A stretch of 64,000 nucleotides of DNA, taken from Bacteroidales bacterium. Its GTDB lineage: Bacteria > Bacteroidota > Bacteroidia > Bacteroidales > F082. The position numbers were made by a program, and so were the translations under genes. The notes beneath the pieces were generated by a model. That model did not search any database and was not told the DNA's origin. It saw only the letters and a program-made list of their open reading frames with translations. Of the stretch, positions 11,554 to 62,276 are shown in pieces. The DNA lies in contig JAZKYV010000040.1 of assembly GCA_045612345.1 (NCBI GenBank), forward strand, positions 13,749 to 77,748, written 5' to 3'. Position 1 is the stretch's first letter. The number at the start of each line of letters is the position of its first letter.

Positions 11554-11565
11554 AACAATATAATT

Positions 11566-22107: not shown

Positions 22108-22116
22108 ACTTTTTTA

Positions 22117-22154: not shown

Positions 22155-22196
22155 ATATTAATTTATGAGCAAAGATAATAAAGAATTTACAATTAA

Positions 22197-22267: not shown

Positions 22268-22280
22268 ATAATAAATTTTA

Positions 22281-26238: not shown

Positions 26239-26242
26239 CAGT

Positions 26243-26332
26243 ATCTTGAACTCAGAACCTTGAATCTTGAACACTGAACCTATTAGTTCAAAGTTCAAAG
26301 TTCAGAGTTCAGAGCTCAAAGCTCAGAGTTCT
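26243..26332. repeat. Gene-less hairpin built from heptad arrays: (CTTGAAY/CTCAGAAC)x5, loop, (GYTCARA)x6
   Basis: cttgaac tcagaac cttgaat cttgaac actgaac c, tatta, then gttcaaa gttcaaa gttcaga gttcaga gctcaaa gctcaga gttc. It starts 5 nt after the GT2 stop codon. Confidence 0.88.
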
Positions 26333-26339
26333 TAACAAA

Positions 26340-35955: not shown

Positions 35956-35975
35956 AATTTTTTTGGTTTAAGGTT
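35952..35975. repeat. 24-bp perfect direct repeat, copy 1 (CCATAATTTTTTTGGTTTAAGGTT)
   Basis: Covers the yraN start codon and leader. An identical copy lies at 36370-36393. Confidence 0.9.
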
Positions 35976-35982
35976 TAATAAA

Positions 35983-36012
35983 AGACTACAGACTATGGAC
36001 TACAGACTACGG
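35983..36012. repeat. Heptad array (AGACTAY/GGACTAC)x4
   Basis: agactac agactat ggactac agactac gg. It is inverted relative to 36416-36443, with a 12-bp perfect complementary core (GGACTACAGACT). Confidence 0.88.
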
Positions 36013-36022
36013 TTAGAGTGTT

Positions 36023-36373
36023 TTAATTATTTTTTAGAAATTCTCTTAACTTATAGATTTGTTTGGATATAACTGACAATTTTGATTGTAGTTCTTGTCG
36101 TTTTTCTGTACTGCAATAATTTAAATCTTCACAAAGGTAAAGCATACTTTTGACTTCTGCGCAACTTCCATAAGATATGTTGAGATAACGAATGTAAGTT
36201 TTATCAGAACCACTTTCTGAACCTTCAGCAATGTTGTTCATAATAGACAAAGAAGCTCTTTGTATTTGATCACGGAAACCATAATCATTACAAGTATACA
36301 TTACTTCATAAATGGCTTTGACAAATAATCTAGAGTCTTGCCATACTCTTAAATTTTCAAGATTTCTTTCCAT
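36023..36373 (-). CDS. Four-helix-bundle protein, 23S rRNA-intervening-sequence / DGR-Avd family (copy 1)
   Basis: 116 aa with the family signature DQIQRASLSIMNNIAEGSESGS...YL.IS.GS..E. Confidence 0.85.
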   Translation of the reverse strand: MERNLENLRVWQDSRLFVKAIYEVMYTCNDYGFRDQIQRASLSIMNNIAEGSESGSDKTYIRYLNISYGSCAEVKSMLYLCEDLNYCSTEKRQELQSKLSVISKQIYKLREFLKNN

Positions 36374-36393
36374 AATTTTTTTGGTTTAAGGTT
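36370..36393. repeat. 24-bp perfect direct repeat, copy 2
   Basis: Covers the four-helix-bundle ORF start codon and leader, 418 bp from copy 1. Confidence 0.9.
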
Positions 36394-36408
36394 ATTATTA
36401 TGATTGAT

Positions 36409-37002
36409 TTAATCTGAAGTCCGAGGTCCGAAGTCTGTAGTCCTTCTTTCCACTAACTCGCAAATAATATGTCCTATCATAATGTGGCTTTCTTGTATGC
36501 GTGGGGTGTCGGTGGAAGGAACGTTAAGTAATATTCCGCCGAAGTCTTTCATCATTCCACCCGTTGCTCCGGTGAGCGAGATGATGTTGACGCCGAGTTC
36601 TTCACATGTTTTATAAGCTTCTATTATGTTACGGCTGTTACCGCTTGTCGATATTCCAACGAGCACGTCGCCTTTTTTTGCTGACGCTCTCATGATTCTG
36701 CTATAAACCATGTCGTAGCCGTAGTCGTTGCTGACGGCTGTCATGTAAGAAGAGTTGCAATGCAGGGCTTCTGCGTTGAGCGGATCGCGATCCAGATAAA
36801 AGCGGCCGCTGAGTTCCGCAGCGAGATGCTGTGCGTCGGCAGCGCTGCCGCCATTGCCGCAGAAATGAATCTTGCCGCCATTACGCAGACTCTCTACGAT
36901 GAGATTGACAGCGTCTTCAATAGACTGCATCAGTTTCTCATCAGATAAGATTTTGCTTTTTACCTCAATGCTTTGCTCTATGGACTCTTTTATTCTGTTC
37001 AT
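36409..37002 (-). CDS. gmhA: D-sedoheptulose-7-phosphate isomerase (SIS domain)
   Basis: 197 aa, collinear with E. coli GmhA (FCGNGGSAADAQHLAAEL, GISTSGNS, RIQESHI). The last ~12 codons (RRTTDFGPRTSD) are encoded by the heptad array. Confidence 0.85.
   Translation of the reverse strand: MNRIKESIEQSIEVKSKILSDEKLMQSIEDAVNLIVESLRNGGKIHFCGNGGSAADAQHLAAELSGRFYLDRDPLNAEALHCNSSYMTAVSNDYGYDMVYSRIMRASAKKGDVLVGISTSGNSRNIIEAYKTCEELGVNIISLTGATGGMMKDFGGILLNVPSTDTPRIQESHIMIGHIICELVERRTTDFGPRTSD
36416..36443. repeat. Heptad array (GRAGTCY/GTAGTCC)x4
   Basis: gaagtcc gaggtcc gaagtct gtagtcc. It lies inside the 3' end of gmhA. Confidence 0.88.
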
Positions 37003-39365: not shown

Positions 39366-39405
39366 AATCTCAGAAATTCAAAAATTCAAAACCTCAGAAT
39401 TTCGG
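39366..39405. repeat. Solo octad array (YTCARAAW)x4
   Basis: aatctcagaa attcaaaa attcaaaa cctcagaa tttcgg. It begins 9 nt after the S46 peptidase stop. Confidence 0.8.
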
Positions 39406-39658: not shown

Positions 39659-40432
39659 TTATTTATTTGGAGTTGTATAATAGAAAGAATGGTATATTTC
39701 TTTGTCTTTATATATTACACGTTTAGACGGATAGCCATCTTCATCTATCTCAATCCCATAAGCTTCATTTTGGGGTATATTTTTCCAAAACGGAGTTAAA
39801 AGCGGATCTCTTATTTCGAATGCAATTTCACTAGATAAATAGAATGGGAGTGTGTAATGCGGATGTATATAATCAGAAAATTCCTCATATATGCGATTTC
39901 CCCATTTTATAACATTATCTCCATCCCATTCAAATGTATCTTGAACAAAACCATTGGAGTTTATTCTTTTTACCAATTTTCCATCATCATTGTAAACATA
40001 TTCTTCAATATTAAGCAATTCTCCATATCCATATCCATATATTTTTTTAATTCCGTTATCAGTTAAATGAATTGTCATTTTATCATAAAACAACTCCCAT
40101 ATCGGATAGCTAAAAAAACCATCATAAGGCACGATAGACAATGCTACGACTATGCTATCTTCATTGTAGTAAGTAAAATCATAATTGACATAATCTCCAT
40201 TACCGGTACCATACTTCACATTTTTTATCTGAGAGCAGTCTTCATTCCAGTCAATTGAAAGTATTACTTTTTCAGGATCGTCATTCAATAATTGTTTGGT
40301 AAGATACTTTCTTACCAAAGGTGTTTCGGGCAATGTGTCATTATTGTCGTCTTCGCCGCCTATCGGGTCCGGCTTACATGCTATCATCAAGACTGATAAC
40401 AAGAGAATCAAAGGGAATAATGTTTTTTTCAT
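39659..40432 (-). CDS. Hypothetical lipoprotein (last gene of the SusC/SusD/PNGase string)
   Basis: 257 aa with a lipoprotein signal (SVLMIAC), rich in Y/D/N/G beta-type repeats. No family recognised. Confidence 0.5.
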   Translation of the reverse strand: MKKTLFPLILLLSVLMIACKPDPIGGEDDNNDTLPETPLVRKYLTKQLLNDDPEKVILSIDWNEDCSQIKNVKYGTGNGDYVNYDFTYYNEDSIVVALSIVPYDGFFSYPIWELFYDKMTIHLTDNGIKKIYGYGYGELLNIEEYVYNDDGKLVKRINSNGFVQDTFEWDGDNVIKWGNRIYEEFSDYIHPHYTLPFYLSSEIAFEIRDPLLTPFWKNIPQNEAYGIEIDEDGYPSKRVIYKDKEIYHSFYYTTPNK

Positions 40433-40470
40433 AGTTTATTTTTTTAAAAGTCAACAAGATAATGGTGCCT

Positions 40471-40509
40471 GAGCCTGTCGAAGACACGACTCGGCGCTTC
40501 GACAAGCTC
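40471..40509. repeat. GC-rich REP-like palindrome
   Basis: GAGCCTGTCGAAG (40471-40483) / CTTCGACAAGCTC (40497-40509), a 13-bp stem with one mismatch and a 13-nt loop. It is followed by agttcaaagttcaac words (40522-40539). Confidence 0.75.
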
Positions 40510-40650
40510 AGCGACCAACTTAGTTCAAAGTTCAACAGCTTTAATTTTTATTGCAAATGTACGTTATGAAAAAAACAATGTCAAGTGGAAAATAATCAAC
40601 CAAAATGAGTTAATTTATTGATAATGTGTTGTAGGGTGTGTTTTGCTAAA

Positions 40651-40686: not shown

Positions 40687-40732
40687 AATTATGAATTATG
40701 CATTAAGCATTATGAATTATCTAATGATTATC
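40687..40732. repeat. Heptad array (ATTATGM/ATTAAGC)x5-6 overlapping a stop codon
   Basis: aattatg aattatg cattaag cattatg aattatc taatgat tatc. It contains the stop (40717-40719) and the last codons of the PNGase F paralog. Confidence 0.75.
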
Positions 40733-43266
40733 TTCTTAGTCTGCATTGTGTTTCCTAAGACCTTGACGAAGTAGACTCCGCTTGAGAGGTCTGAAACGTC
40801 GATGCTTCTGCTTCCATCGAATGTGAATCTTCTTACTTCCTGACCTTGAGCATTTATGATGAGTACGCTTAACTTGCCGTGTTCATAATCTGAAGAGAAG
40901 TTAAGAGTTGACTTTGCTGGGTTAGGGAAGATGTCAACGTTGAATGTTTCTTTTTCAACTAAAGCAGGAACGTCTGTTAAGATCTCGATAGTGTTACTTA
41001 AAGAAACGACTTTGCCTGATACTCTTAAGACAGGATTGTCAGGAGCGTCGCATTTTTCACATGTATAACCGTCAACGCAGTTAGGGTGGTTTGGATGACA
41101 TTCATCGACGTATGATGGGTCGAATTCGTAGAATAAGTCAGCATAACCGGTTGTGATATATTCTGTCAAGTCGAAGTCCCAAACCATAGCGATGCTACCT
41201 GGGCACCATCCTGAACGGTTGTAAGTCCAAGTACCTGCTTGTGGCTGGCAGCCTGCTGGGTTAGGATTACATGTTCTCCATAAGTGTTGTTCGTAAGCTT
41301 TCTCGCCGTTGATGTTGATGTTATGAGTTGCATCGTAGAACTCAGCAGCATTGCCTGTATTGTGTGTGCCGTTTGCGCCGCTGCTCCAGTTGTGACCTGT
41401 TGTAGTGAGTTTCAATCTTGCAGCTTCTGTATTAGGTGTGAAGAAGTATTTTACCTTTGGAACAGGTTGTTGGTTCTTATAGTCACCGAATGAGAAGATG
41501 TCGAACCATAATTCTTCAACGTTAGCGTAGTCATATTCAGGAGTTCCTTTAGTCATGTTGAATGTAAGAGTTGGGCAGTAGCCTTCGCCATTCCATGATT
41601 CGAAATAGAGTTCGAATTCAACGAGACCTTGGAGTACAGATGTATAGTCAGTTACGTCAACGTTGTCTTCGCATTCACCGCCGAATGGAGTTGTGTAACG
41701 GAAGAGTTCCATCCATTCACCACGGTAGTTTCTTACCTTAACGCCACCAACGCGGTCGTAGTCGTCGCATTTGCTGTTGATACAGTTGTGGTCGTAGTGA
41801 GCGTTGATCTTATTGAAAGCGCCTACGTGTGTTGGCATTACGTAATTGCCTTTTGCAGAGTGGATCTGAGGAGTACATTTAAGGTCACCGTCGAAAGTAA
41901 CGACGTCGAGGTCTTCATATTCGTTTGTGATGGTGAATGTAGAAGACTTTTCTGTTACGTTGCCACCTGTTGTTGTGACAGCTACTGTCATATTATGTTC
42001 ACCGTATGATGAAGGTGTCCAGTAGCAATAGTAATAACCGTTTTCTGGGTCGTTAGGATATATTGTTGCCAAAGCCATTGCTTCGCCGTTGATTGTACAT
42101 GTTACTTCTTCGAAGTGAAGAGCGTCGGCATGTTCAACTTGGAGGCTTGTGCTTATTACGATAGCCTTTAATTCTGGAAGATAAACTGTTGTCTCGTTAT
42201 AAGGACGACGGATTGTGATGTCTGTTGGGTAGGCTGTGTGGTCGATAACTTCGAAAGTCTTCACTACGTCAGGAGCTGCGAGCCATTCATCGTTACCGGC
42301 TTGAGTAGCTTTGACAGAAACCTTGCCAGTCTCGCCTGTGAGAGTAAGGATGTTGCCGTCTAATGTAGCAGGACCACTGATGAGTTCGAAAGAAACAGGA
42401 AGACCTGATGTTGTTGTAGCTTCCAATGTATAAGGAGGGTTTATTGTCAGCTGTTTTGGGATATCAGGCATATTGATATATTGCATATTGCCTTCTGGCA
42501 TCTGGCGTACCAAGAAGTTGTCGAACCCGCCTGTACCGCCTTGGCAGTGATAGAAGACAGCGTCCCATACTTTATAGTCGCGTCTGTCGCCAGAACCTGG
42601 AGTCATGCCCATATTGAGTTCTGTAGCGTCTGCGAGCTGTTGCCATTCGCTCCAGTTTGTGCCGTCGAAGTCTTTAACGAAGACTGTCAAAGAACCTTCG
42701 CCGTCGTAAGCTGAGAAGTCGAAAGACATTTTATATCTTGCCCATCCTTCTTGTCTGTAGTTTTTAACAACGATATCTTTACCGTTAGGAAGTACGATGT
42801 TAGGATGTTTGTCGTTGCCAGAACCAGCTACGCGGAGATAAACGCCGCCGTCGCCGTCTGTCATGCCTTGAAGAACGTGGCCGTCGCCGTCAGCGTCGAA
42901 GCCAACGCCAGCGTAGTTGCCCCACCATGCTGAGTAGAGGTCGAATTCAAGGTCGATGATGCCGCCGTTCTTGAAGTTGAAGGCGAAGTTTTCTGAAGCT
43001 TTACGTGTTGCTGTTCTACCAACACCAGCGCCGCCGTAAGGATAGAAAACTGCTACTGATTCGTCTGGTGACAATAAACCGTCAGCGGTATAGTCGACGT
43101 CGAAGTCTTGTGATGTACCTGCTGTCTGGTAATGTGTAACCCAATTGTCTTGTCCGTTAAGACATTGTGTTCCTTGTTTATAATCATTGAAATCGATGAT
43201 GTATTCTTCTTGCGCGAAAGCTGTCAAGCACAACATCAAGGAAAGTGTCAAAAATAATTTTTTCAT
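40717..43266 (-). CDS. PNGase F-family peptide-N-glycosidase, long form with T9SS CTD (paralog 2)
   Basis: 849 aa, collinear with 30116-32710, with the same PNGase F motifs (CDDYDRV, GEWMELFRYTTPF, DVTDYTSVLQG, GTPEYDY, AAEFYDATHNININ, NRSGWCPG). The T9SS tail reads IFPNPAKSTL...GVYFVKV...KIIIR. Confidence 0.82.
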   Translation of the reverse strand: MKKLFLTLSLMLCLTAFAQEEYIIDFNDYKQGTQCLNGQDNWVTHYQTAGTSQDFDVDYTADGLLSPDESVAVFYPYGGAGVGRTATRKASENFAFNFKNGGIIDLEFDLYSAWWGNYAGVGFDADGDGHVLQGMTDGDGGVYLRVAGSGNDKHPNIVLPNGKDIVVKNYRQEGWARYKMSFDFSAYDGEGSLTVFVKDFDGTNWSEWQQLADATELNMGMTPGSGDRRDYKVWDAVFYHCQGGTGGFDNFLVRQMPEGNMQYINMPDIPKQLTINPPYTLEATTTSGLPVSFELISGPATLDGNILTLTGETGKVSVKATQAGNDEWLAAPDVVKTFEVIDHTAYPTDITIRRPYNETTVYLPELKAIVISTSLQVEHADALHFEEVTCTINGEAMALATIYPNDPENGYYYCYWTPSSYGEHNMTVAVTTTGGNVTEKSSTFTITNEYEDLDVVTFDGDLKCTPQIHSAKGNYVMPTHVGAFNKINAHYDHNCINSKCDDYDRVGGVKVRNYRGEWMELFRYTTPFGGECEDNVDVTDYTSVLQGLVEFELYFESWNGEGYCPTLTFNMTKGTPEYDYANVEELWFDIFSFGDYKNQQPVPKVKYFFTPNTEAARLKLTTTGHNWSSGANGTHNTGNAAEFYDATHNININGEKAYEQHLWRTCNPNPAGCQPQAGTWTYNRSGWCPGSIAMVWDFDLTEYITTGYADLFYEFDPSYVDECHPNHPNCVDGYTCEKCDAPDNPVLRVSGKVVSLSNTIEILTDVPALVEKETFNVDIFPNPAKSTLNFSSDYEHGKLSVLIINAQGQEVRRFTFDGSRSIDVSDLSSGVYFVKVLGNTMQTKKIIIR

Positions 43267-48414: not shown

Positions 48415-49782
48415 ATGGCAAAAATTAAGACTGTTTTTTATTGTAAGGAGTGTGGTAATGAGTCACCTAAGTGGATCGGTCATTGCCCTGGCTGTGGAGC
48501 GTGGAATAGTTATGTGGAAGAAAGCGTTGCTGTTGGAAAAGATAACAAGTCTGCCAAGAATTCTTTTTTGCCAGAGATGAAATCCAAGCCTGTTCCTGTC
48601 TTGGAGATAAGCGCGGCCAAAGAGGCTCGCATCGATATGGGATGCGAGGAACTCAACCGCGTTTTGGGTGGCGGTCTCGTCTCTGGTTCTCTCATATTGC
48701 TAGGCGGCGAACCTGGAATAGGAAAATCGACGCTTTTGCTGCAAGTGGCTCTTAACCTTAAAGATAAGAAAATACTTTATGTATCTGGCGAAGAGAGCGC
48801 ACAACAGATCAAGATGCGCGCTGAGCGTATAGGTGTGCGTAACGAGAGCTGCCTCATCCTGACCGAGACAAATACTACAGACATCACGAAACATATCGAA
48901 GAGACAAAGCCAGACATCGTTGTCATCGACTCAATACAGACTCTCGAGTCGGCGGCAGTCGACTCAACGGCGGGCAGCATAAGTCAGATTCGTGAGACTG
49001 CCGCCGAGATGAACAAGGTGGCGAAATCTCTTCACATCCCGACATTCCTCATAGGTCATATCACCAAAGACGGCAGCATCGCCGGACCTAAAATCTTAGA
49101 ACATATAGTCGATACCGTGATACAATTCGAGGGCGACCGCCACTATGGTTTCCGCGTCCTTCGCACCATAAAAAACCGCTTCGGTTCTTCTTCAGAACTA
49201 GGTATCTTCGAGATGAATGCCAATGGTTTACGTGAGGTGTCAAACCCAAGTGAGATCTTGTTGTCGCAACGTGACGAGAACGTCAGCGGCATCAGCATCG
49301 CTGCCACTCTCGAAGGGCTGCGTCCTATGATGATAGAGACTCAGGCTCTGGTCAGCACTGCTGCTTATGGCACGCCTCAACGTAGCTGCACCGGCTTCGA
49401 CACTCGCCGCCTTAATATGCTGCTCGCGGTGCTGGAGAAAAGGGCAGGATTCCGCCTCTCTACCAAAGACGTCTTCCTCAACATAGCGGGAGGATTGCGC
49501 GTTGATGATCCTGCTATCGACCTTGCTGTGGTAGCAGCGATTTTATCATCGAACGAAGATGTGGAGATAAGTAACAGATATGCCTTCGCAGCAGAGGTGG
49601 GACTCTCCGGCGAGATACGCTCGGTCAACAGGATAGAAGCCCGCATCGCCGAAGCCGACAAACTCGGAATGGAAAAGATATTTGTGTCGAAATACAACTG
49701 CAGAGGCCTCGACACCTCCAAATTCAATGTTGAGGTAGTACCGTTGGCGACGATAGGAAATTTGTTTAAAGAGTTGTTTTAA
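48415..49782 (+). CDS. radA: DNA repair protein RadA
   Basis: 455 aa with a Zn finger (CKECGNESPKWIGHCPGCGAWN), Walker A (GGEPGIGKST), KNRFG, and a Lon-like C-domain. Confidence 0.95.
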   Translation: MAKIKTVFYCKECGNESPKWIGHCPGCGAWNSYVEESVAVGKDNKSAKNSFLPEMKSKPVPVLEISAAKEARIDMGCEELNRVLGGGLVSGSLILLGGEPGIGKSTLLLQVALNLKDKKILYVSGEESAQQIKMRAERIGVRNESCLILTETNTTDITKHIEETKPDIVVIDSIQTLESAAVDSTAGSISQIRETAAEMNKVAKSLHIPTFLIGHITKDGSIAGPKILEHIVDTVIQFEGDRHYGFRVLRTIKNRFGSSSELGIFEMNANGLREVSNPSEILLSQRDENVSGISIAATLEGLRPMMIETQALVSTAAYGTPQRSCTGFDTRRLNMLLAVLEKRAGFRLSTKDVFLNIAGGLRVDDPAIDLAVVAAILSSNEDVEISNRYAFAAEVGLSGEIRSVNRIEARIAEADKLGMEKIFVSKYNCRGLDTSKFNVEVVPLATIGNLFKELF

Positions 49783-49810
49783 AAGACACCAAGACACCGA
49801 GACACCGAGA
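49783..49810. repeat. Octad array (GACACCRA)x3
   Basis: aagacacc aagacacc gagacacc gaga, starting 1 nt after the radA stop. It is inverted relative to 50222-50256, with a 13-bp perfect complementary core (CCAAGACACCGAG). Confidence 0.88.
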
Positions 49811-49840
49811 TTTATATTTATTAACTAAAAGTCAAAAATT

Positions 49841-50200
49841 ATGAAGCGCACAATAGAAAATTTATACATTTGGCAAGAGTCAAGAAGCGTAGTAAATGAT
49901 ATCTACACATTGATGAAAGATTGTAGAGATTTTGGTTTTAAGGACCAAATTCAAAGAGCATCTATAAGTATTATGAATAATATTGCAGAAGGAACAGAAT
50001 CAGGATCTGATGCGAAGTATATAAACTTTCTGAATATTTCAAGAGGCAGTTGCTCCGAAGTGCATTCAATGTTATACCTATGTGAAGATTTTAAAATATG
50101 TTCACAGGAAGAAAGAATTAAGATTCAGAATAAAATAAAACTATTGTCAATAGGGATAGTAAACTTAATCAATTATATTTCAAATAACAAGAAGCATTAA
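49841..50200 (+). CDS. Four-helix-bundle protein, 23S rRNA-IVS / DGR-Avd family (copy 2)
   Basis: 119 aa with DQIQRASISIMNNIAEGTESGS...FLNISRGSCSEV. It is roughly 55-60 percent identical by eye to copy 1. Confidence 0.85.
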   Translation: MKRTIENLYIWQESRSVVNDIYTLMKDCRDFGFKDQIQRASISIMNNIAEGTESGSDAKYINFLNISRGSCSEVHSMLYLCEDFKICSQEERIKIQNKIKLLSIGIVNLINYISNNKKH

Positions 50201-50215
50201 TCAGGTTACTTAAAC

Positions 50216-51142
50216 TCAATTCTCGGTGTCTTGGAGTCTAAGTGACTTGGTGACTCTAAAAAACCATACTACCAAAAACGACATTCCCCATCGTGAAAGC
50301 AGCATCCAGAGGTATGCTCCGCCGGCTGCAGTGAACAATAAAAGATCTTCTAAGTTGCTGTGTGATATCCCTATATGCATATTTAGAAGGTCGTTTTCTT
50401 CTTTGGTGGTTTCGCCTTTTTCTGCTTCTTCTATCATAATGCCTGCGCCGTAAGCCAGTCCCAAGGTGTTGGATACTAACCATAAGAAAGCGCATTTCGG
50501 TGATAGACCGAAAAATATCATCACTGGCTTTAAGAATCTTGAGATGTATTGTATTATGCCGAACTCGGTTAATATCTTTTGTAACAATGTCAAGAGATAT
50601 ACCAACAAGGCCATCGTGAGTATGTTCTTCGTTGTTCTGAAAGCCCATTGCTTTAACATCACTGCAAATGTCAGATTGTCTTGTATGGAACTTTCAATGG
50701 CTTGGTTTTCAAAGCCTCCAGGCATGATTTTGTTTAAGACCCATCCTAATATGAATGCTGATAATGTTCTTACTATAACAATCTTGATTACAGAAGAACC
50801 TGTCTTATGCTGAACGGCTGTCTCTACGATCATATTATGCGAACAAAGCACCATGACGGATAATATCGTCGCGGCTCTTGTGCTGAGTTCTAATGTCGTC
50901 ATCACGGCGATGGCGGAATAGCAGTTGACGAAATATCCTGATACATAAGCGAGCGCTGCTTCACCAGGAAGTCCGAAGTGTGAGAAGATAGGAGTGAGCC
51001 AATATGAAATCCATTCTATGATTCCGAAATATTGTAATAATAATATCACAAATGATAGAGAGACCATTATCTTGGTCAGCCACCAGATGGTTTTTAATGC
51101 GCTCGGTCTGGCGCTTTTGATGCAATTTGTAAATCGTGACAT
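50216..51142 (-). CDS. Nucleoside-recognition (Gate) domain-like polytopic membrane protein
   Basis: 308 aa with about 8 TM helices. The family call is tentative. The last ~12 codons (VTKSLRLQDTEN) are encoded by the octad array. Confidence 0.45.
   Translation of the reverse strand: MSRFTNCIKSARPSALKTIWWLTKIMVSLSFVILLLQYFGIIEWISYWLTPIFSHFGLPGEAALAYVSGYFVNCYSAIAVMTTLELSTRAATILSVMVLCSHNMIVETAVQHKTGSSVIKIVIVRTLSAFILGWVLNKIMPGGFENQAIESSIQDNLTFAVMLKQWAFRTTKNILTMALLVYLLTLLQKILTEFGIIQYISRFLKPVMIFFGLSPKCAFLWLVSNTLGLAYGAGIMIEEAEKGETTKEENDLLNMHIGISHSNLEDLLLFTAAGGAYLWMLLSRWGMSFLVVWFFRVTKSLRLQDTEN
50222..50256. repeat. Octad array (CTYGGWGW)x4, reverse complement of GACACCRA
   Basis: ctcggtgt cttggagt ctaagtga cttggtga ctc. 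Confidence 0.88.
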
Positions 51143-52054: not shown

Positions 52055-54373
52055 ATGGTAAAAAACTTAGTAATTGTCGAGTCTCCTGCCAAGGCTAAAA
52101 CTATAGAAGGTTTTTTGGGTAAGGATTACGTGGTGAAGTCGAGCTATGGTCATGTGAGAGACTTGAACAAATCGAATTTGAGTTTGGACATGAACGCCGG
52201 TTTCCAACCTTTATATGAGATTCCGGAAGATAAGAAATCATTAGTAGCAGAATTGAAGAAAATAGCCGAGGACGCCGAAATGGTGTGGCTCGCATCCGAT
52301 GAGGACCGCGAAGGAGAATCAATTTCGTGGCATCTTTTCGAGACATTAGGTCTTAAAGACGAGAAATATCGTCGTATCGTTTTCCATGAGATCACCAAGA
52401 CAGCCATCGCTCATGCTATCGACAACCCTCGTAAGATTGACATGGACTTGGTTTCAGCTCAACAGGCACGCCGTGTCCTTGACCGCGTTGTTGGTTATGA
52501 GTTGTCACCTCTTCTCTGGAAAAAAGTGAAACCATCACTTTCTGCAGGTCGTGTACAGTCAGTAGTCGTTCGTCTCATCGTTGAATGTGAAGAAGAGATC
52601 AAGAACTTCAAACAGACAAGCGCATTCCGCGTGACAGCGATATTCACTTTCACTATCGACAATCGCGAATATTCTCTTTCTGCTGAACTTCCATATCGTT
52701 TTGAGACAGAAGAAGAAGCACATGCATTCTTGCAAAACTGCAAAGATGCATCATATAAAATTAAAGCTGTTGAAAAGAAACCTATTTCAAAATTGCCAGC
52801 ACCTCCATTCACAACATCAACATTACAACAGGAGGCAGGCCGTAAGTTAGGCTTCTCTGTCAGCAACACAATGCGAATCGCACAACAGCTCTATGAGTCA
52901 GGAAAGATCACTTACATGCGTACCGACTCTGTTAACTTGTCGCAGTTCGCTCTTATGTCAGCGAAAAAAGAAATCGAGAATCTCTACGGAACAGAATATG
53001 TTAAAAACCGTCAGTTCTCAACAAAATCAAAAGGCGCGCAAGAAGCTCACGAAGCTATCCGTCCAACATATCTCGACCAACAAACCATCAAGGGAACCGC
53101 TGACGAACGTAAGCTCTATGAACTTATCTGGAAACGTACCATCGCTTCTCAAATGGCAGAGGCTCAGATAGAAAAGACCAACGTCAACATAGAGATATCT
53201 AATTCAGACAAAGAATTCACAGCAAGTGGAGAAGTCGTTTTATTCGATGGCTTCTTGAAGGTATATACTGAAAGCAGCAACGAAGAACAAGGCGAAACAA
53301 GCAATGGAATGTTACCTCCTCTCGTAGTAGGTCAAGTTCTTGACTTAGAAAAGATGGAAGCACAACAACGCTTCACTCGTCATACTCCTCGCTACACAGA
53401 GTCTAGCCTCGTTAAGAAAATGGAAGAGCTCGGTATCGGACGTCCTTCAACATACGCTCCAACAATCTCTACTATTCAAAAGAGAGGTTATGTTGAAAAG
53501 AAAGATATCCAAGGCGAAGTTCGTAACTATAAAGTCTTGACTCTCAAGAAAAATAAGATTACAGAAAAGATTGGAAAAGAAAATATAGGAAACGAAAAAG
53601 GCAAACTCGTTCCAACAGACATCGGCGTATTGGTAAACAGATTCTTGTTGCAGTATTTCGATAATATCATCGACTATAACTTCACTGCTAATGTTGAAAA
53701 AGAATTCGACAAGATTGCTGAAGGCGAATGCAAATGGAACAGCATGATCAGCGATTTCTATAAAGATTTCCATAAGCAAATCGAAGATACATCAGACAAC
53801 TCAGGTAAGTTCAGCGGCGAGAAATTCCTCGGCGTCGACCCTGCTTCAGGTCTTAACGTATATGTTAAGATCGGTCGCTTCGGTCCTGTAGCTCAAATCG
53901 GTGACACCGACTCAGAAGATAAGCCTAAGTTCGCTGGTCTTAACAAAAATCAAAGTATCGAGACAATCACTTTGGAAGAGGTCCTCGCTTTATTCGCGTT
54001 CCCTCGTATCCTCGGTGAATATGAAGGTGCAGAGATTCAAGTGGCTATCGGTCGCTTCGGTCCTTATATCAAACATAATAACGTATTCTACGGCTTGACA
54101 AAACTCGATGATCCAGCAATGGTTTCTTACGATAGAGCTATCGAAATCATAGAGTCAAAACGCAAGGCTGACATGGATAATGTAGTATCTACATATCCAG
54201 AAAACGAAGACTTGAAAGTGTTGAAAGGCCGTTTCGGAATTTATATCAGTCTGAACAAACAAAACTATAAGATTCCAAAGACATACGATGCAACAAACTT
54301 GACATATCAAGATTGTATGGATATCATTAACGATCCAAATAACGCCTCAAAGAAAAGAGGAAAGAAAAGTTGA
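52055..54373 (+). CDS. topA: DNA topoisomerase I
   Basis: Toprim N-terminus LVIVESPAKAKTIEGFLG, DEDREGE, and active-site region ITYMRTDS. The start is taken at MVKNLVIV. Confidence 0.95.
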   Translation: MVKNLVIVESPAKAKTIEGFLGKDYVVKSSYGHVRDLNKSNLSLDMNAGFQPLYEIPEDKKSLVAELKKIAEDAEMVWLASDEDREGESISWHLFETLGLKDEKYRRIVFHEITKTAIAHAIDNPRKIDMDLVSAQQARRVLDRVVGYELSPLLWKKVKPSLSAGRVQSVVVRLIVECEEEIKNFKQTSAFRVTAIFTFTIDNREYSLSAELPYRFETEEEAHAFLQNCKDASYKIKAVEKKPISKLPAPPFTTSTLQQEAGRKLGFSVSNTMRIAQQLYESGKITYMRTDSVNLSQFALMSAKKEIENLYGTEYVKNRQFSTKSKGAQEAHEAIRPTYLDQQTIKGTADERKLYELIWKRTIASQMAEAQIEKTNVNIEISNSDKEFTASGEVVLFDGFLKVYTESSNEEQGETSNGMLPPLVVGQVLDLEKMEAQQRFTRHTPRYTESSLVKKMEELGIGRPSTYAPTISTIQKRGYVEKKDIQGEVRNYKVLTLKKNKITEKIGKENIGNEKGKLVPTDIGVLVNRFLLQYFDNIIDYNFTANVEKEFDKIAEGECKWNSMISDFYKDFHKQIEDTSDNSGKFSGEKFLGVDPASGLNVYVKIGRFGPVAQIGDTDSEDKPKFAGLNKNQSIETITLEEVLALFAFPRILGEYEGAEIQVAIGRFGPYIKHNNVFYGLTKLDDPAMVSYDRAIEIIESKRKADMDNVVSTYPENEDLKVLKGRFGIYISLNKQNYKIPKTYDATNLTYQDCMDIINDPNNASKKRGKKS

Positions 54374-54375
54374 TT

Positions 54376-54410
54376 AGACTTTGAACCTTGACTTTGAACC
54401 TTGAACTTTT
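54376..54410. repeat. Heptad array (CTTTGAA/CCTTGAM)x5
   Basis: agactttgaaccttgactttgaaccttgaactttt, starting 3 nt after the topA stop. It is inverted relative to 54827-54892. Confidence 0.85.
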
Positions 54411-54413
54411 AAT

Positions 54414-54446
54414 AATACCTCGGGATTTTCCGGGGTATTTTTTATA
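54414..54446 (+). terminator. Rho-independent terminator
   Basis: Stem ATACCTCGG / CCGGGGTAT (one mismatch) followed by T6. Confidence 0.7.
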
Positions 54447-54475
54447 TCAAAATTTATAACCTTAAAAATTACAAC

Positions 54476-54826
54476 ATGAGAAATTTTAGAGAATATGACA
54501 TTTGGAAAGATTCGATGATCATTACCAAAGATGTTTATTTATATACAAAAGAGTTTCCAAAACAAGATGCCATTATAAATCAAATGCAAAGGGCTGCAAT
54601 TTCTATCCCGTCTAATATTGCAGAAGGTTCATCGAGAAAGTCTTCTGTTGAATTTGCTAGATATATAGAAATAGCATTGGGTTCAGCATACGAGTTAGAG
54701 ACACAAATAGAATTGTCTTTTCTTCTTCATTACATAAATAATGATATTTATAAAAAATTAATATCAAATGTTTGTAGTGTTGAAAAACGAATGTCAAAAT
54801 TTATATCAACATTAAGAGAAAAATAG
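54476..54826 (+). CDS. Four-helix-bundle protein, 23S rRNA-IVS / DGR-Avd family (copy 3, divergent)
   Basis: 116 aa with NQMQRAAISIPSNIAEGSSR...YIEIALGSAYELETQ. Confidence 0.8.
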   Translation: MRNFREYDIWKDSMIITKDVYLYTKEFPKQDAIINQMQRAAISIPSNIAEGSSRKSSVEFARYIEIALGSAYELETQIELSFLLHYINNDIYKKLISNVCSVEKRMSKFISTLREK

Positions 54827-54892
54827 CTCAAAGTTCAGAGCTCAAAGTTCAAAGCTTAAAGTTCAGAGCTCAAAGTTCAAAGTTCAGAGTCC
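54827..54892. repeat. Heptad array (GYTCARA/GCTTAAA)x9
   Basis: ctcaaa gttcaga gctcaaa gttcaaa gcttaaa gttcaga gctcaaa gttcaaa gttcaga gtcc. It fills exactly the gap between the 4HB stop (54826) and the polA stop (54893). Confidence 0.9.
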
Positions 54893-57583
54893 TTAGTGCG
54901 CTTCCAGCCAATTGGTTCCTGTGTTGAGATTAACTTCAATAGGAACATTGAGTGGGAGCGCATTTGTCATTTTATCTTTGACGAGTTCGCTCAATATATC
55001 GAGTTCTTCTTTATGGACGTCGAAGACCAATTCGTCGTGTACCTGTAATATCATCTTGGATTTCAGATCTCTTGCTTTCATCTCGTTGTAGATGTTGGTC
55101 ATCGCTATTTTTATCATATCGGCTGAGCTGCCTTGTATTGGCGCATTGATGGCGTTTCTCTCTGCGAAGTTCCTTACTACGCTGTTGCCGGAGTTGATGT
55201 CGCGGAGATAACGACGGCGTCCTAACATAGTTTCAACATATCCGTATTGTTTCGCGAAATCGACTTGCTTGTCGATATATTCTTGAATGCCGATATATTC
55301 TTTGAAATAATTCTTTATTATCTCTGAGGCCTCGCTTCTTGATATCTTTAATCTTTCTGCCAATCCGAATGCCGACATTCCGTAAATGATGCCGAAGTTG
55401 ACAGCTTTGGCGTTGCGACGCATTTCGCTGGTGACGTCTTTTATGTCAACGCCATAGACGCGAGCTGCTGTGTCAGCGTGAATGTCAAGCCCCTCACGGA
55501 AGGCAGACTGCATGGCTTGGTCGCCGCTGAGATGAGCGATGATTCTTAACTCAATCTGCGAATAATCCGCTGCGAGCAGTATGTGGTTTTCGTCACGTGG
55601 AACGAAGGCCTTTCTGATCTCACGGCCTTTGTCGGTACGAACCGGTATGTTCTGGAGGTTAGGGTTGTTGGAACTCAATCGACCTGTGGCTGTAACGGCC
55701 TGGTTGAATGAAGTGTGAATGAGACCATCGTAAGGGCTTACCAATGAAGGCAAGGCATCGACATAAGTCGATTTGAGTTTTGTCAGAGAACGATAGTCGA
55801 GAATATGTTGTACTATAGGGTTTTCGTTTATGATCTTTTGGAGGACATCTTCGCCTGTAGGATACTGGCCTGTCTTTGTTTTCTTGGCAGGCGCCTTTAT
55901 CTGCAGCTTGTCAAAAAGAATCTCGCCCAATTGTTTTGGTGATCCAATGTTGAAAGTCGTGCCAGCGATTTCATAGATGCTGTTTTCTATATCAGCAATC
56001 TCTTTGGCTTGTTCCTCGCTGATCTGTTTCAGTCCGTTGATGTCTATCTTGACGCCGTTGGATTCCATCTTGGCAAGGACTCTTACCAATGGCATCTCGA
56101 TGTCGTGGAAAAGGCTTTCTAAATCATTTTCAGATAATAAGTCCTTGAACTTATCGTAAAGCTGCCATCTGATGTCGGTATTGTCTGTGGCGTAAATGTC
56201 GTTGAGATAATCGAGACTATGATTCAATTCCGGCTCAATGAGATAGTGAGCTATCATGCAGTCCCATAACTTATTGTTGATCTCAAAACCATATTTTGCA
56301 AGAATTGAGATGTCGGTCTTGATGTTATGGCCTATTATCGTTTTCTCATTGTCGTTGAAGATGCAAGAGAATTTTGTTAATAAGTCTTTGCATTTCTCGT
56401 CATCGACAGGAAGTTCTATCTTGTAAATGTCGTTAGGGTTGACGGCAAAAGTCATTTCTCTTGTCTCGATATGGAAAGAGAATTCATTGCAGCTCTTGAG
56501 ATTGTCAATAAGTTCATTGATTTGAGAATCATCTTTAACGATGATGAACTCACGAGTTTTAACAATGTTGGTAGCAGGTTCTTCATCGAAGCCGCCGAAA
56601 AGATCAAGCTGGCTGTTGGCTGCTGGCTGTTGGGTATTAGCCATCGGCTTTTGGCTTTTAGCTACTGGTTGTTGGTTATTGGTTGAAGTCTGTTGTCTGT
56701 TGTCTGTTGTCCGTTGACTCTTAAACCTCGCAAGGAATGTTCTGAATTCCAGTTCTTCGAATAATTCGGTGAGGCGATCCATATCAGGGTCTTTGACTTT
56801 CAGCTGTTCTTCATCGAAATCGACAGGTACGTTGGTGTCTATTGTCGCGAGTTTTTTAGACATAAGACCTTGTTGTGCGAAGTTGATGACGTTCTCTCGC
56901 ATTTTGCCTTTTAGTTTATCGGCATTTGCGATGAGGTTTTCAACGGAGTCGAATTCAGCTATGAGTTTGGAAGCGTTTTTCTCCCCGATGCCAGGGATGC
57001 CAGGGATGTTATCGGAAGCGTCGCCCCATAGTCCGAGTATGTCGATGACTTGTTCAGGGCGGGCAATGCTGTATCTCTCGCATACTTCTGCAGGTCCGAG
57101 GACTTTTGCAGGCTCGCCGCCTTTTGCAGGTTTATAGATGAATATGTTTTCACTTACGAGCTGCCCGAAGTCTTTGTCGGGAGTCATCATAAATGTGGTG
57201 AAGCCTTCTTTTTCAGCTTTCTTGGATAGCGTTCCTATTATGTCATCGGCTTCATAGCCTTCGCGTTCGAAGATAGGAATGTTAAAAGCTTTTATGATTT
57301 CCTTTATGTAAGGGACAGAAGCCTTGATGTCAGGAGGTGTCTCTTCTCGGTTGGCCTTATAAGCGGAGAAGTCGTCGGTGCGGAGGGTAGGAGCGCCGAG
57401 GTCGAAGGCAATGCCTATATGGGTGGGTTTTTCGTTTTTAAGCACTTCATATAAAGTGTTCAGAAAACCCATAATGGCAGAAGTGTTCAAGCCTTTTGAG
57501 TTGATTCTTGGGTTTTTATTTAAAGCAAAATAGGCCCTATATATAAGTGCGTAAGCGTCGAGAAAGAATACCTTTTTCATCAT
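54893..57583 (-). CDS. polA: DNA polymerase I
   Basis: 896 aa with a 5' nuclease domain (FLDAYALIYRAYF, GIPGIGEKNA), a 3'-5' exo-like domain, and pol motifs (LLAADYSQIELR, RRNAKAVNFGIIYG, QVHDELVFD). It contains an in-frame repeat-derived linker. Confidence 0.95.
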   Translation of the reverse strand: MMKKVFFLDAYALIYRAYFALNKNPRINSKGLNTSAIMGFLNTLYEVLKNEKPTHIGIAFDLGAPTLRTDDFSAYKANREETPPDIKASVPYIKEIIKAFNIPIFEREGYEADDIIGTLSKKAEKEGFTTFMMTPDKDFGQLVSENIFIYKPAKGGEPAKVLGPAEVCERYSIARPEQVIDILGLWGDASDNIPGIPGIGEKNASKLIAEFDSVENLIANADKLKGKMRENVINFAQQGLMSKKLATIDTNVPVDFDEEQLKVKDPDMDRLTELFEELEFRTFLARFKSQRTTDNRQQTSTNNQQPVAKSQKPMANTQQPAANSQLDLFGGFDEEPATNIVKTREFIIVKDDSQINELIDNLKSCNEFSFHIETREMTFAVNPNDIYKIELPVDDEKCKDLLTKFSCIFNDNEKTIIGHNIKTDISILAKYGFEINNKLWDCMIAHYLIEPELNHSLDYLNDIYATDNTDIRWQLYDKFKDLLSENDLESLFHDIEMPLVRVLAKMESNGVKIDINGLKQISEEQAKEIADIENSIYEIAGTTFNIGSPKQLGEILFDKLQIKAPAKKTKTGQYPTGEDVLQKIINENPIVQHILDYRSLTKLKSTYVDALPSLVSPYDGLIHTSFNQAVTATGRLSSNNPNLQNIPVRTDKGREIRKAFVPRDENHILLAADYSQIELRIIAHLSGDQAMQSAFREGLDIHADTAARVYGVDIKDVTSEMRRNAKAVNFGIIYGMSAFGLAERLKISRSEASEIIKNYFKEYIGIQEYIDKQVDFAKQYGYVETMLGRRRYLRDINSGNSVVRNFAERNAINAPIQGSSADMIKIAMTNIYNEMKARDLKSKMILQVHDELVFDVHKEELDILSELVKDKMTNALPLNVPIEVNLNTGTNWLEAH
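56609..56720. repeat. Intragenic heptad array, 16 units (112 bp), inside polA
   Basis: ctggctg ttggctg ctggctg ttgggta ttagcca tcggctt ttggctt ttagcta ctggttg ttggtta ttggttg aagtctg ttgtctg ttgtctg ttgtccg ttgactc. On the coding strand this gives the 7-aa-periodic QRTTDNR QQTSTNN QQPVAKS QKPMANT QQPAANS. Confidence 0.88.
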
Positions 57584-59298: not shown

Positions 59299-60030
59299 TT
59301 GTCTTTACTCACATTCTTTAGATATAGAAATAAGTCTGATAGAGCATTGGCAAGTTCTATCCATAATATCTTTGGCTTTTATCCTAAAAATATAGAATTG
59401 TATAAATTGGCTTTCACTCATAAGTCAATGTCTATAAAAAATAGTGGATATAGCATTAGCAATGAACGCCTTGAGTTCCTTGGTGACGCTGTGTTGAGCA
59501 CTATCGTAGCTCAGTTCTTATTTAAGAAATATCCGACACGACAAGAAGGCTTCATGACAGAGATGCGCTCTAAAATCGTAAGTCGCGCTTCCTTGAATAA
59601 GCTGTCCCAGAAATTCGGTTTCGAAAATCTGATCAATTACGCAAGATCTAACGAACAAGGTAAATCTAAATCAATGGGCGGTAATGCTTTCGAGGCTTTC
59701 ACCGGCGCTTTGTTCCTAGATTATGGCTACGAATACGCATATAAGATAATGGTGAACCGTGTCATAAGAATGCATATCGATCTTGAAGAACTTGAGAAGA
59801 ACGAGACTAACTATAAAAGCAAGCTTCTTGAATGGGCGCAGAGACAGAAACGTCGCGTGGTGTTTAATCAAGTGGCTGTTAAAGGCGCCGGTTACGACCG
59901 ACTATATCATATTCAAGTCACTATCGATGATGAAGAATATGGCAAGGCTGCAGACCATTCTATAAAAGGAGCAGAACAGCTTGCAGCAGAGAAGACCTGG
60001 TTAATGATGAACGAACAGAACTCTCAATGA
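59299..60030 (+). CDS. rnc: Ribonuclease III
   Basis: RNase III signature NERLEFLGDAVL and a C-terminal dsRBD (YKSKLLEWAQ...GAEQLAAEK). The start is apparently TTG at 59299, because an in-frame TAG at 59293 precludes an upstream start. Confidence 0.88.
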   Translation: MSLLTFFRYRNKSDRALASSIHNIFGFYPKNIELYKLAFTHKSMSIKNSGYSISNERLEFLGDAVLSTIVAQFLFKKYPTRQEGFMTEMRSKIVSRASLNKLSQKFGFENLINYARSNEQGKSKSMGGNAFEAFTGALFLDYGYEYAYKIMVNRVIRMHIDLEELEKNETNYKSKLLEWAQRQKRRVVFNQVAVKGAGYDRLYHIQVTIDDEEYGKAADHSIKGAEQLAAEKTWLMMNEQNSQ

Positions 60031-61581: not shown

Positions 61582-61650
61582 AGTCAACAGACAACGGACA
61601 ACGGACAACACTCAAAAGTCATTGTCAATTGTTAATTGTCAATTGTTAAT
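61582..61650. repeat. Heptad arrays (RGACAAC)x4 then (GTYAATT)x4, partly self-complementary
   Basis: agtcaac agacaac ggacaac ggacaac actcaaa agtcatt gtcaatt gttaatt gtcaatt gttaat. It fills the pheS-start / PPIase-stop spacer. Confidence 0.85.
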
Positions 61651-61652
61651 TT

Positions 61653-62276
61653 TTATTTTAAAATTTCAATTGTCATTGTTACGGCTTCAACAGGAACATC
61701 CATATAACCTGTCTTTACCTTAGCGATTTTGTCGATGATTTCGAGACCTTCAACAACTTCACCGAATACTGTATATTCGCCGTCCAAGTGTGGAGTGCCG
61801 CCAACTGTTGTATAAGCTTCGATTTGTTCTTGTGTGAAAGTCAAGCCCATACGTTGTTGATACATTTGGATGTGAGCATCTGTTAACACTTGACCTTGAA
61901 CGATGTAGAATTGGCATCCGCTAGAAGCTTTTTTAGGGTTGACATGGTCTCCTTGACGAGCTGCAGCCAGAGCGCCTTTTTTGTGGATGTGGTTCGCGCG
62001 GAATTCAGCTGGGATTGTATAACCTGGATCAACGCTACCGTCTTGGTTGTGGCCGCCTTGAATCATGAAGTTATTGATAACACGGTGGAATGGTGAATTG
62101 TTGTACCAACCTTCGTTAATAAGCTTTATGAAATTATCTCTATGTAATGGAGTGTCGTTGTATAACTTAACAGTGATGTCACCTAATGAAGTCTTGATCA
62201 AGACTAATGTTTCTTTTTCTTGTGCTTGTGTTGTCATGCCTAATAATATACAAATGATTAAACAAATTTTTTTCAT
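61653..62276 (-). CDS. Cyclophilin-type peptidyl-prolyl cis-trans isomerase (secreted)
   Basis: 207 aa with a signal peptide, FHRVINNFMIQGG, and SGCQFYIV. Confidence 0.9.
   Translation of the reverse strand: MKKICLIICILLGMTTQAQEKETLVLIKTSLGDITVKLYNDTPLHRDNFIKLINEGWYNNSPFHRVINNFMIQGGHNQDGSVDPGYTIPAEFRANHIHKKGALAAARQGDHVNPKKASSGCQFYIVQGQVLTDAHIQMYQQRMGLTFTQEQIEAYTTVGGTPHLDGEYTVFGEVVEGLEIIDKIAKVKTGYMDVPVEAVTMTIEILK

Follow-up and report, generated by a model that had tools for sequence, protein, structure and literature searches.

The intervening sequence (IVS) in the 23S rRNA gene of Coxiella encodes a member of the PF05635 protein family and has a 28-bp stem of terminal inverted repeats, with two or three GACAGAT heptamers whose number varies between strains; cleavage by RNase III takes place at the first repeat (PMC4990558). 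PF05635 itself is very large, and searches for it return about 5,000 clusters. It is represented by two crystal structures, and the Avd protein of diversity-generating retroelements (DGRs) is its only member with a known function. Here, we describe a cassette built around a gene of this family in the spacer between topA and polA of an uncultured Bacteroidales lineage from the ruminant gut. It lies on a 64,000-nucleotide stretch of contig JAZKYV010000040.1, referred to here as the window, and is the third of three such cassettes in it (cassette 3). The element consists of a PF05635 (S23p/XCC0516, Avd-like) gene, a short leader, an internal terminator-like hairpin, and two inverted arms of tandem heptads. 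With a probability of roughly 60%, we regard it as an IVS-type element that has an mRNA spacer, not 23S rRNA, as its site.

Tandem heptamers have also been described on their own. Over-represented intergenic heptameric repeats reportedly include the cyanobacterial short tandemly repeated repetitive (STRR) sequences of Mazel et al. (1990). Xanthomonas genomes contain an excess of the heptamer GGGAATC, with 70 to 75 inverted pairs per genome, and Nostoc shows one of GGGGAYT, neither with an explanation (PMC4692102). The heptamer excess in Beggiatoaceae and cyanobacteria (TAACTGA) and in some Bacteroidetes is likewise unexplained (PMC4679880).

Inverted heptad arms enclose a four-helix-bundle gene

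A preliminary description of this DNA had proposed a discrete cassette with inverted heptad arms, and the repeat analysis bears this out (Table 1). The left array begins three bases past the topA stop, reads GAC TTTGAAC CTTGAC TTTGAAC CTTGAAC TTT, and is resolved by Tandem Repeats Finder (54377-54409) into 2.5 copies of period 13 and 3.9 copies of period 7. The right array, with one GCTTAAA among its GYTCARA units, is called at 54825/8-54890 with 9.0 copies of period 7. Since it spans the first base past the TAG of the open reading frame (ORF) through the last base ahead of the polA stop (54893-54895), the exact fit that had been noted between the two stops is confirmed. About five left heptads thus face nine right ones, and the arms are inverted relative to each other, with 90% complementarity across 20 nt (54390-54409 and 54872-54891). 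In the window as a whole, the two-unit pattern GYTCARAGYTCARA occurs 16 times with one mismatch allowed, compared to 0.78 expected, and there are 9 strict tandem arrays of 6- to 8-nt units versus 0 in 30 shuffles. The predicted minimum free energy (MFE) fold of the RNA (-121.6 kcal/mol, z -5.5) pairs the left arm with the outer portion of the right arm in a stem of 30 bp or more, so that terminal inverted repeats close a stem around an S23p ORF, as in IVS elements. The upstream neighbor is identified as topA by the Toprim and Topoisom_bac Pfam domains of the orthologues at related loci and by an identical TopA protein in contig L129.

Inside the arms, a G+C-rich 11-bp hairpin (54414-54439) followed by a T tail has the form of an intrinsic terminator; the heptad arms themselves are A/T-rich, lack a U tail, and are found inside operons too. 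This inner hairpin (54414-54446) had been taken for the terminator of topA. However, it is missing from the empty topA-polA sites of the two closest relatives (contigs L001 and L002) and is conserved only together with the ORF (contigs L012, L021, and L105 to L114), and we therefore consider it part of the cassette.

The encoded protein matches PF05635 (E value, 1.8e-30; 105.8 bits, with a cutoff of 33.8) and TIGR02436 (E value, 3.3e-28; 98.1 bits, with a cutoff of 24). Its PDB matches are XCC0516 (2GSC; E value, 3.5e-19) and BT_0352 (2RLD), both deposited with five chains. A single-sequence AlphaFold2 model was poor (predicted local distance difference test [pLDDT] score, 52), and we used instead a model from a 40-sequence alignment, which reached a pLDDT of 96.9 with helices at residues 8-26, 32-52, 57-83, and 89-115. 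In Foldseek, this model aligned to 2GSC with a TM score of 0.93, a root mean square deviation of 1.3, and 35% identity, to 2RLD with a TM score of 0.82, and to DGR Avd structures with TM scores of 0.76 to 0.79 (0.79 for 4DWL) at about 9% identity. The Pfam and TIGRFAM matches, the model, and the structural alignments thus agree with the four-helix bundle predicted in the preliminary description, which had not recognized the family (23S rRNA IVS protein/Avd-like) or the 23S IVS architecture. By homology with XCC0516 and Avd, the protein would be a nucleic-acid-binding pentamer; it is only mildly basic (isoelectric point, 7.6 to 8.6). None of the three PF05635 ORFs in the window matched a PADLOC or PHROGs model, and Rfam at a permissive threshold returned only sub-threshold chance matches.

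The cassette is exchanged as a unit, independently of its flanks

To follow the history of the site, we took the stop-to-stop spacers of 19 relatives, labeled Bacteroidales or Candidatus Limimorpha, that keep the convergent topA/polA pair. Cassette 3 is present in two of them (L012 and L021), inner terminator and leader included. The two closest relatives have no ORF but bare hairpins of cassette 3 heptads, 30 nt long in L001 (ttagactttgaactttgagttcaaaggtcc) and 22 nt long in L002 (tattgaactttgatcaaagttc). In 11 of the 19, the spacer measures 15 to 120 nt and is mostly a bare hairpin of other 7- to 8-nt tandem units (TTGAAAA, GTCTAAA, AGACNACA, and CTTGAGAA); that of L016 is a plain terminator hairpin, and that of L020 comprises 15 nt only. 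The other four contain an unrelated small ORF. The cassette is therefore present or absent among relatives with sharp boundaries. A neighbor-joining tree built from the flanking genes groups the window (cassette) with L001 (bare hairpin) as sisters, and likewise L021 (cassette) with L004 (bare TTGAAAA hairpin). The flanks of L004 and L021 are 92 to 100% identical up to both stops, and the entire spacer between them is swapped. Six loci were left out of the tree for incomplete coverage, L012 among them, so that its placement relies on pairwise synonymous divergence (dS).

The unrelated ORF in the spacers of L003, L006, L007, and L019 (locus about 11201-11573) encodes ∼90 amino acids with a signal peptide, a conserved "LLP.THG" motif, and a C-terminal hydrophobic tail, "VPVGSGLLLLG...KKKD," that resembles a sorting signal. 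It has a TAnnTTTG promoter box upstream and no repeat arms.

The divergence of the cassette disagrees with that of its neighbors. Between L021 and L012, the cassette dS is 0.09 (bootstrap, 0.03 to 0.18) and the spacer is 97.1% identical, whereas the adjacent 250 codons give a dS of 1.16 in topA and 1.82 in polA; the block of high identity extends from about 25 nt ahead of the topA stop to about 30 nt within polA. Between the window and L021 or L012, respectively, dS is 0.24 or 0.29 for the cassette, 0.55 or 0.96 for topA, and 1.04 or saturated for polA. The site of the second window cassette (site 2, at 49.8 kb) shows the reverse, with a cassette dS of 1.58 and flanks of 0.20 to 0.32 between the window and L001. 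Three alleles occur at site 2 in relatives, distinguished by their arms and by the lineage of their ORF (AAGACACC, GAGTTGCTA, and ATGAGTCA/ATAAGTC), and the site is empty in L003, L007, and L016. The window-type cassette is inverted relative to the flanking genes in L009 (15405-15836), and the copy in L002 (15422-15712) is a decaying pseudogene with a premature stop at codon 97. Given that cassette and flank dS are discordant and that the site 2 alleles pair arms with ORF lineage, arms and ORF are exchanged as a unit. This unit, bounded at the two stop codons or no more than about 30 nt from them, has been gained, lost, swapped, and once inverted independently of the flanking housekeeping genes. 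Horizontal transfer has carried it into the identical site in diverged genomes, by a mode of spread that we infer below.

The ratio of nonsynonymous to synonymous divergence (dN/dS) is 0.05 to 0.13 in every lineage tested, and about 0.05 for the cassette 3 ORF, showing that the protein is functional. The preliminary description had made its proposal depend on insertion boundaries among relatives and on purifying selection, and both are found here.

The arms are microsatellite-like and change in length by 7-nt steps. Ten contigs (L105 to L114) encode an identical protein (P0001, 97% identical to that of the window ORF), all between topA and polA. Despite this identity, their left arms have 3 to 7 units and their right arms 5 to 11, with distances of 39, 60, 67, 74, and 81 nt from the ORF stop to polA. 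Similarly, the near-identical strain L129 has 13 right heptads versus 9 in the window. In the few cases that bear on it, the repeat period does not track the protein clade: the cassette 1 protein is near the site 2 proteins, yet the periods are 7 and 8, respectively.

Distant family members share a polar, repeat-armed layout

A metagenome scan retrieved 80 loci from sediments, soils, marine samples, and gut with homologues of 35 to 52% identity, 73 of which were used as metagenomic loci. For each of these and for 300 control ORFs, the 120 nt upstream of the ORF were aligned with the reverse complement of the 120 nt downstream. The median local alignment score of the flanks was 30.5, compared to 16 in the controls, and inverted repeats exceeded the control 95th percentile in 47 of the 73 loci and the 99th in 22. 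The best tandem period was equal on both sides in 56 of the 73 (7/7 in 41, 8/8 in 11, and 6/6 in 4). The units all differ, as in TAGGGAC ×9/CCCTAAT ×9, GGTAACA/CTGTTAC, and GTGAAGC/GCTTCAC. According to the DNA alignments, G exceeds C in the upstream arm in 33 of 34 metagenomic cases. The median distance is 27 nt from the end of this arm to the ATG and 11 nt from the stop to the start of the downstream arm. Distant members in many bacteria are thus surrounded by a polar layout of a G-rich 5' arm, the ORF, and a C-rich 3' arm, with a period of 6, 7, or 8.

Two further cases illustrate the setting of such genes. One homologue, P0025, is 66% identical and has hexamer arms of up to about 15 copies; in every case it is flanked by a tsaB-like gene and an OTCase gene that converge on it. 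The 30- to 44-amino-acid ORFs annotated in contigs L115 to L124 (about 3351-3485, minus strand) consist wholly of hexamer arm (TGTCAT/CGTCAT...) and are probably in-frame repeat artifacts. In Xanthomonas campestris (L125, 1420-1880), the homologue of the crystallized XCC0516 lies inside the accB-accC operon, with four copies of GGGAATC upstream and four of a CCCATTC-type unit downstream. Its annotated start (109 amino acids) appears to be too far downstream compared to the PDB sequence.

Sister cassettes, leader motif, and bare repeat hairpins in the window

A phmmer scan of all window ORFs, together with Pfam, finds exactly three family members (36023-36373, 49841-50200, and 54476-54826). They span about 19 kb and lie at housekeeping-gene 3' ends, as had been reported at the outset, and the two sister ORFs score 101.8 and 112.2 bits against PF05635. 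The inverted tandem arms differ in unit from cassette to cassette (AGACTAC, AAGACACC, and TTTGAAC), and all three cassettes are located between protein-coding genes, not in helix 25 or 45 of 23S rRNA. Cassette 1 neighbors a SIS-domain gene and yraN (UPF0102), all codirectional, while cassette 2 separates the convergent radA-like (48415-49782) and Gate-domain (50216-51142) genes. The arms encode the C-terminal codons of the Gate-domain protein (...VTKSLRLQDTEN; 50216-50260, minus strand) and of the SIS-domain protein (36409-36445, minus strand). The tails of these host proteins therefore change with the cassette allele, and alignments to relatives stop at the arm.

The leader had been suggested to travel with the ORF, given that ATAACCTTAAA is found at 54456-54466 and again in cassette 1 (36385-36395, minus strand). 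However, TAACCTTAAA also lies 10 to 27 nt 5' of the host gene starts at 6714, 12087, 15468, 27190, and 35955, and we reject a cassette-specific leader: this is a genome-wide motif ahead of start codons. In the form (T/A)AACCTTAAA, it precedes the start codons of two four-helix-bundle ORFs and of ordinary genes, at least five in number, by 9 to 27 nt (6677-6686, 27168-27177, and 54457-54466; on the minus strand, 12099-12108, 15480-15489, 35967-35976, and 36385-36394). Allowing up to one mismatch, it has 18 matches, compared to an expectation of 7.2. A lineage-specific role in translation initiation, or as a leader, is possible in a host that is expected not to use Shine-Dalgarno sequences. An exact 24-nt direct repeat, AACCTTAAACCAAAAAAATTATGG, which comprises the leader and the start codon (leader plus ATGG), is present at 35953-35976 and 36371-36394 on the minus strand. 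One copy heads the cassette 1 ORF inside the arms and the other heads the downstream yraN outside the right arm, which suggests that cassette 1 copied, or shares, the yraN initiation region.

Arms of this kind are not peculiar to the cassettes, since ORF-less hairpins of 7- to 8-nt units are common in the genome as well as at the topA-polA site of relatives. One of them belongs to the cassette 3 unit family (Table 1), and another, at 32705-32822, encloses a canonical terminator but no ORF. The hairpins at 113-187, 26240-26333, 32705-32822, and 61585-61655 form helices of 5 to 6 bp between periodic mismatches, with z scores of -2.9 to -7.6. Further ORF-less arrays of 7- to 8-nt units at 8454-8490, 8888-8947, 15640-15745, 22110-22270, 39370-39391, and 40687-40720 are mostly inverted pairs, at gene ends or between codirectional genes, and draw on recurring unit families (GTTCARA, AAATTCAG/TCTGAGATTT, CAACAGA/CGGACAA, and TTGAAAA). 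A half-array of GTGTCTTAGAGTCTTGGTGACTTA at 221-246, with no partner array visible nearby, abuts the 3' end of the gene at 246-2792 (minus strand) and resembles the right arm of cassette 2 (50225-50255).

Two other repeats differ in kind. The region between the genes at 39659-40432 and 40717-43266 (both minus strand), otherwise A/T-rich, contains a G+C-rich inverted repeat (GAGCCTGTCGAAG ... CTTCGACAAGCTC) at 40455-40520, with two GTTCAA units after it. Within polA, a 7/21-nt tandem repeat of TGGCTGT type (56610-56716) encodes the Q/P/A-rich linker of PolA, whose gene-call length varies from 896 to 951 amino acids among the window and related contigs; slippage of heptads, in multiples of 21 nt, may thus extend to coding sequence.

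Table 1. Coordinates of the features discussed, as positions in the window
Feature	Position	Strand	Remarks
topA (DNA topoisomerase I, 772 amino acids)	52055..54373	+	Upstream flank; ATG at 52055, stop TGA at 54371-54373; from the ORF list
Left arm of cassette 3	54376..54410	+	About 5 units TTTGAAC/CTTGAC/CTTGAAC, period 6.5-7
Intrinsic-terminator-like hairpin	54414..54446	+	11-bp stem at 54414-54439, loop ATTT, T tail; inside the arms
Leader motif TAACCTTAAA	54457..54466	+	9 nt 5' of the ATG
PF05635/TIGR02436 four-helix-bundle gene (23S rRNA IVS protein/S23p/Avd-like, 116 amino acids)	54476..54826	+	Start ATG, stop TAG
Right arm of cassette 3	54826..54892	+	9 GYTCARA units, reverse complement of the left-arm units; fills the spacer stop to stop
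polA (DNA polymerase I, 896 amino acids)	54893..57583	-	Convergent downstream flank; Pfam domains of orthologues
rnc (RNase III), proposed cutter of the arm stem	59299..60030	+	Ribonuclease_3 and dsrm domains
Cassette 1	35983..36445	-	AGACTAC-type arms ×4, period 7 (35983-36012 and 36416-36445); PF05635 ORF 36023-36373 (-)
Cassette 2	49783..50257	+	Arms AAGACACC ×3.5 (49783-49810) and GGTGTCTT-type ×4 (50221-50257), period 8; PF05635 ORF 49841-50200 (+)
Bare hairpin of the cassette 3 unit family	26240..26333	+	CTTGAAC ×5/GTTCARA ×6.7, 6-nt loop; MFE -32.9, z -4.9

A probable IVS-type element in an mRNA spacer and its alternatives

In the mechanism that we propose, the arms of a read-through transcript would pair into the predicted stem, and host RNase III, by analogy with homologous 23S IVSs, would cut it. 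Such a cut would free the loop that bears the ORF, or insulate it, and the ends of the flanking mRNAs would be capped by stems. Such insulation could explain why these elements are tolerated in rRNA helices, in operons (accB-accC and SIS-yraN), and between convergent essential genes. The arms would most likely provide the route into a site, since they could serve as portable homology to a resident bare hairpin of matching units, of the type seen in L001, in L002, and at 26240-26333. None of the three ORFs has the Bacteroidetes -7 box TAnnTTTG in the 130 nt upstream of it, an absence that fits expression by read-through. A scan for sigma-70-type promoters gave 5 sites versus 3.5 expected, with a model that is uninformative for Bacteroidales.

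Several observations weigh against this mechanism. The internal terminator lies 5' of the ORF and should stop most read-through from topA, so that both arms would rarely be on one sense transcript. When arm, linker, and arm were folded together as sense and as antisense RNA, stem stability was alike on both strands (sense, 47, versus antisense, 42, of 89; P = 0.67). The folds thus give no sign that selection has acted on the sense RNA in particular, and a role at the DNA level fits equally well. The predicted stems are also interrupted by periodic 1×1 or 2×2 mismatches, which could reduce RNase III cleavage, and the three window cassettes do not clearly obey the rule of a G-rich 5' arm. The cassette has neither a recombinase nor a reverse transcriptase linked to it, and the transfer mechanism is deduced from the boundaries. 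Since the L021/L012 identity block enters both flanking genes by 25 to 30 nt, ordinary homologous recombination with very short tracts may account for the exchange. Finally, the host is an uncultured Bacteroidales known as a metagenome-assembled genome, for which processing, expression, and binding are extrapolated from homologous systems.

Owing to the inner terminator and to stems that are strand equal and interrupted by mismatches, the most serious alternative is an element that acts in DNA, an explanation that we consider possible but rather unlikely. In this case, RNA processing would be irrelevant and the arms would act as hairpins or cruciforms, or as substrates for slippage or recombination. 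The pentamer would bind its own arms as single- or double-stranded DNA and promote arm expansion, the copying of the cassette into other repeat hairpins, or its retention, and the bare hairpins would be ORF-less derivatives or landing pads. Apart from the equal stability on both strands, this would fit the variation of arms between strains by whole units, the inversion between arms in L009, and the exchange of whole units bounded at the arms. It would also fit the dispersed bare hairpins (26240-26333 is similar to the arms of cassette 3, and 221-246 to cassette 2's right arm), as well as the fixed polarity common to ORF and arm skew and the Avd-like fold, that of a nucleic-acid-binding cofactor. 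However, the binding of arms by the protein is an assumption, the protein is no more than mildly basic, and protein clade and repeat period are not strictly matched, cassette 1 having period 7 and the related site 2 cassettes period 8. The homologous 23S rRNA elements are demonstrably processed as RNA.

A second alternative, which we find improbable, is an ordinary host hairpin that serves topA and polA as a bidirectional terminator or as a stabilizer of mRNA 3' ends, with a passenger ORF that lodged in its loop by chance, was inherited vertically, and disappeared from some lineages, and with no mobility as a unit. Bare repeat hairpins do occupy the topA-polA spacer of most relatives and many gene 3' ends in the window, and the 32705-32822 hairpin encloses its canonical terminator without any ORF. 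Vertical inheritance, however, is at odds with the 10- to 20-fold dS discordance between the cassette and the adjacent codons and with a noncoding interior that is 97% identical, and at site 2 the arm units differ with the ORF lineage where the flanks differ by a dS of only 0.2. Random lodging would not be expected to produce a polarity of 33/34, and cassettes are found inside operons, where a terminator would be harmful (accB-accC and SIS-yraN). For these reasons, namely dS discordance, polarity, and operon-internal copies, we reject the idea that the arms are merely a host terminator. It is very improbable that the gene is the Avd of a DGR, with a neighboring reverse transcriptase acting on a pair of template and variable repeats: its TM scores of 0.76 to 0.79 cover Avd as well as the subunits that it forms in the DGR ribonucleoprotein, and PF05635 is the Pfam family that matches Avd (PMC10053308), but there is no reverse transcriptase within about 5 kb on either side (the neighbors are a radA-like gene, a Gate-domain gene, one unknown gene, topA, polA, acpP, fabF, rnc, and pheS), the general repeat output for the cassette regions, from no scan aimed at such pairs, holds no template/variable repeat pair, and the sequence is nearer to the IVS/XCC0516 branch (35% identity to 2GSC versus about 9% to Avd).

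Comparison with known systems

The protein family and the IVS concept were already known. What appears to be new in the literature searched is the occurrence of IVS-type cassettes in mRNA spacers, the polar repeat-armed architecture with its horizontal exchange at the level of the unit, and the link to heptamer repeats. Apart from the Coxiella IVS heptamers, that literature holds no description of repeat-armed PF05635 cassettes, although papers outside it may have one.

The cassette is closest to the 23S IVSs of Coxiella burnetii, Leptospira, and Brucella (PMC4990558). In both, a PF05635 ORF lies in the loop of a stem of terminal inverted repeats, the arm heptamers vary between strains, the size is about 430 to 520 nt, and there is no recombinase and no obvious promoter or ribosome-binding site of its own. 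The cassette differs in its site, a spacer between protein-coding genes, in its longer arms, which are pure tandem arrays, and in the terminator-like hairpin inside them. Its ORF is under strong purifying selection, in contrast to the decaying ORF of Coxiella, and cutting by RNase III, demonstrated for the 23S elements, is extended to the cassette by analogy.

With the heptameric repeats of Xanthomonas, Nostoc, Beggiatoaceae, and cyanobacteria, the arms share 7-nt tandem units in intergenic DNA, often as inverted pairs, a hypervariable copy number, and the lack of an accepted function. In X. campestris, the PF05635 gene lies between GGGAATC and complementary arrays. However, most of the heptameric repeats are bare, while the units here are A/T-rich and not G-quadruplex forming. 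A text search of PMC4692102 and PMC4679880 found no mention of S23p, four-helix-bundle, or intervening-sequence proteins. Avd (4DWL and 8UBE), a small homopentameric cofactor that binds nucleic acid and reverse transcriptase, shares the Pfam superfamily and the four-helix bundle with the cassette protein but differs in genomic architecture, including a nearby reverse transcriptase and repeat pair, and in sequence.

Foldback transposons have inverted termini made of short tandem repeats, as the cassette arms are. The cassettes also resemble MITEs (miniature transposable elements with inverted repeats) and elements of the repetitive extragenic palindromic (REP) and bacterial interspersed mosaic element (BIME) type, in that they are small, nonautonomous, hairpin forming, intergenic at gene 3' ends, and present in many copies. 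In contrast to all of these, each cassette copy has a unit sequence of its own within a conserved architecture, and a conserved nonenzymatic ORF is carried. The junctions of filled and empty sites show no target-site duplication, one copy of the 24-nt direct repeat of cassette 1 being within the arms, and the 64-kb window contains no identifiable transposase partner.

On a more speculative note, PF05635 cassettes, 23S rRNA IVSs, and bare inverted arrays of 6- to 8-nt units might all belong to one widespread family of hairpin elements, a tentative and rather doubtful unification. It would include the Xanthomonas, cyanobacterial, and Beggiatoaceae heptamers and the window hairpins, with the Avd-like pentamer as the only dedicated protein, which would recognize the periodic arms and drive or license their expansion and their copying into other hairpins. 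If true, this would account both for the heptameric microsatellites that have long been noted to be in excess between bacterial genes and for how rRNA intervening sequences arose. The topA-polA locus offers filled, empty, and swapped alleles of an IVS-type element at a non-rRNA site, together with quantitative support for the joint horizontal movement of arms and ORF. The polar architecture ties PF05635 to the excess of heptameric repeats in bacterial intergenic DNA, a link that is directly testable in Xanthomonas, where the gene of the crystallized protein lies between GGGAATC arrays. The comparison thereby bears on the origin of the 23S rRNA intervening sequences, a question since about 1990.

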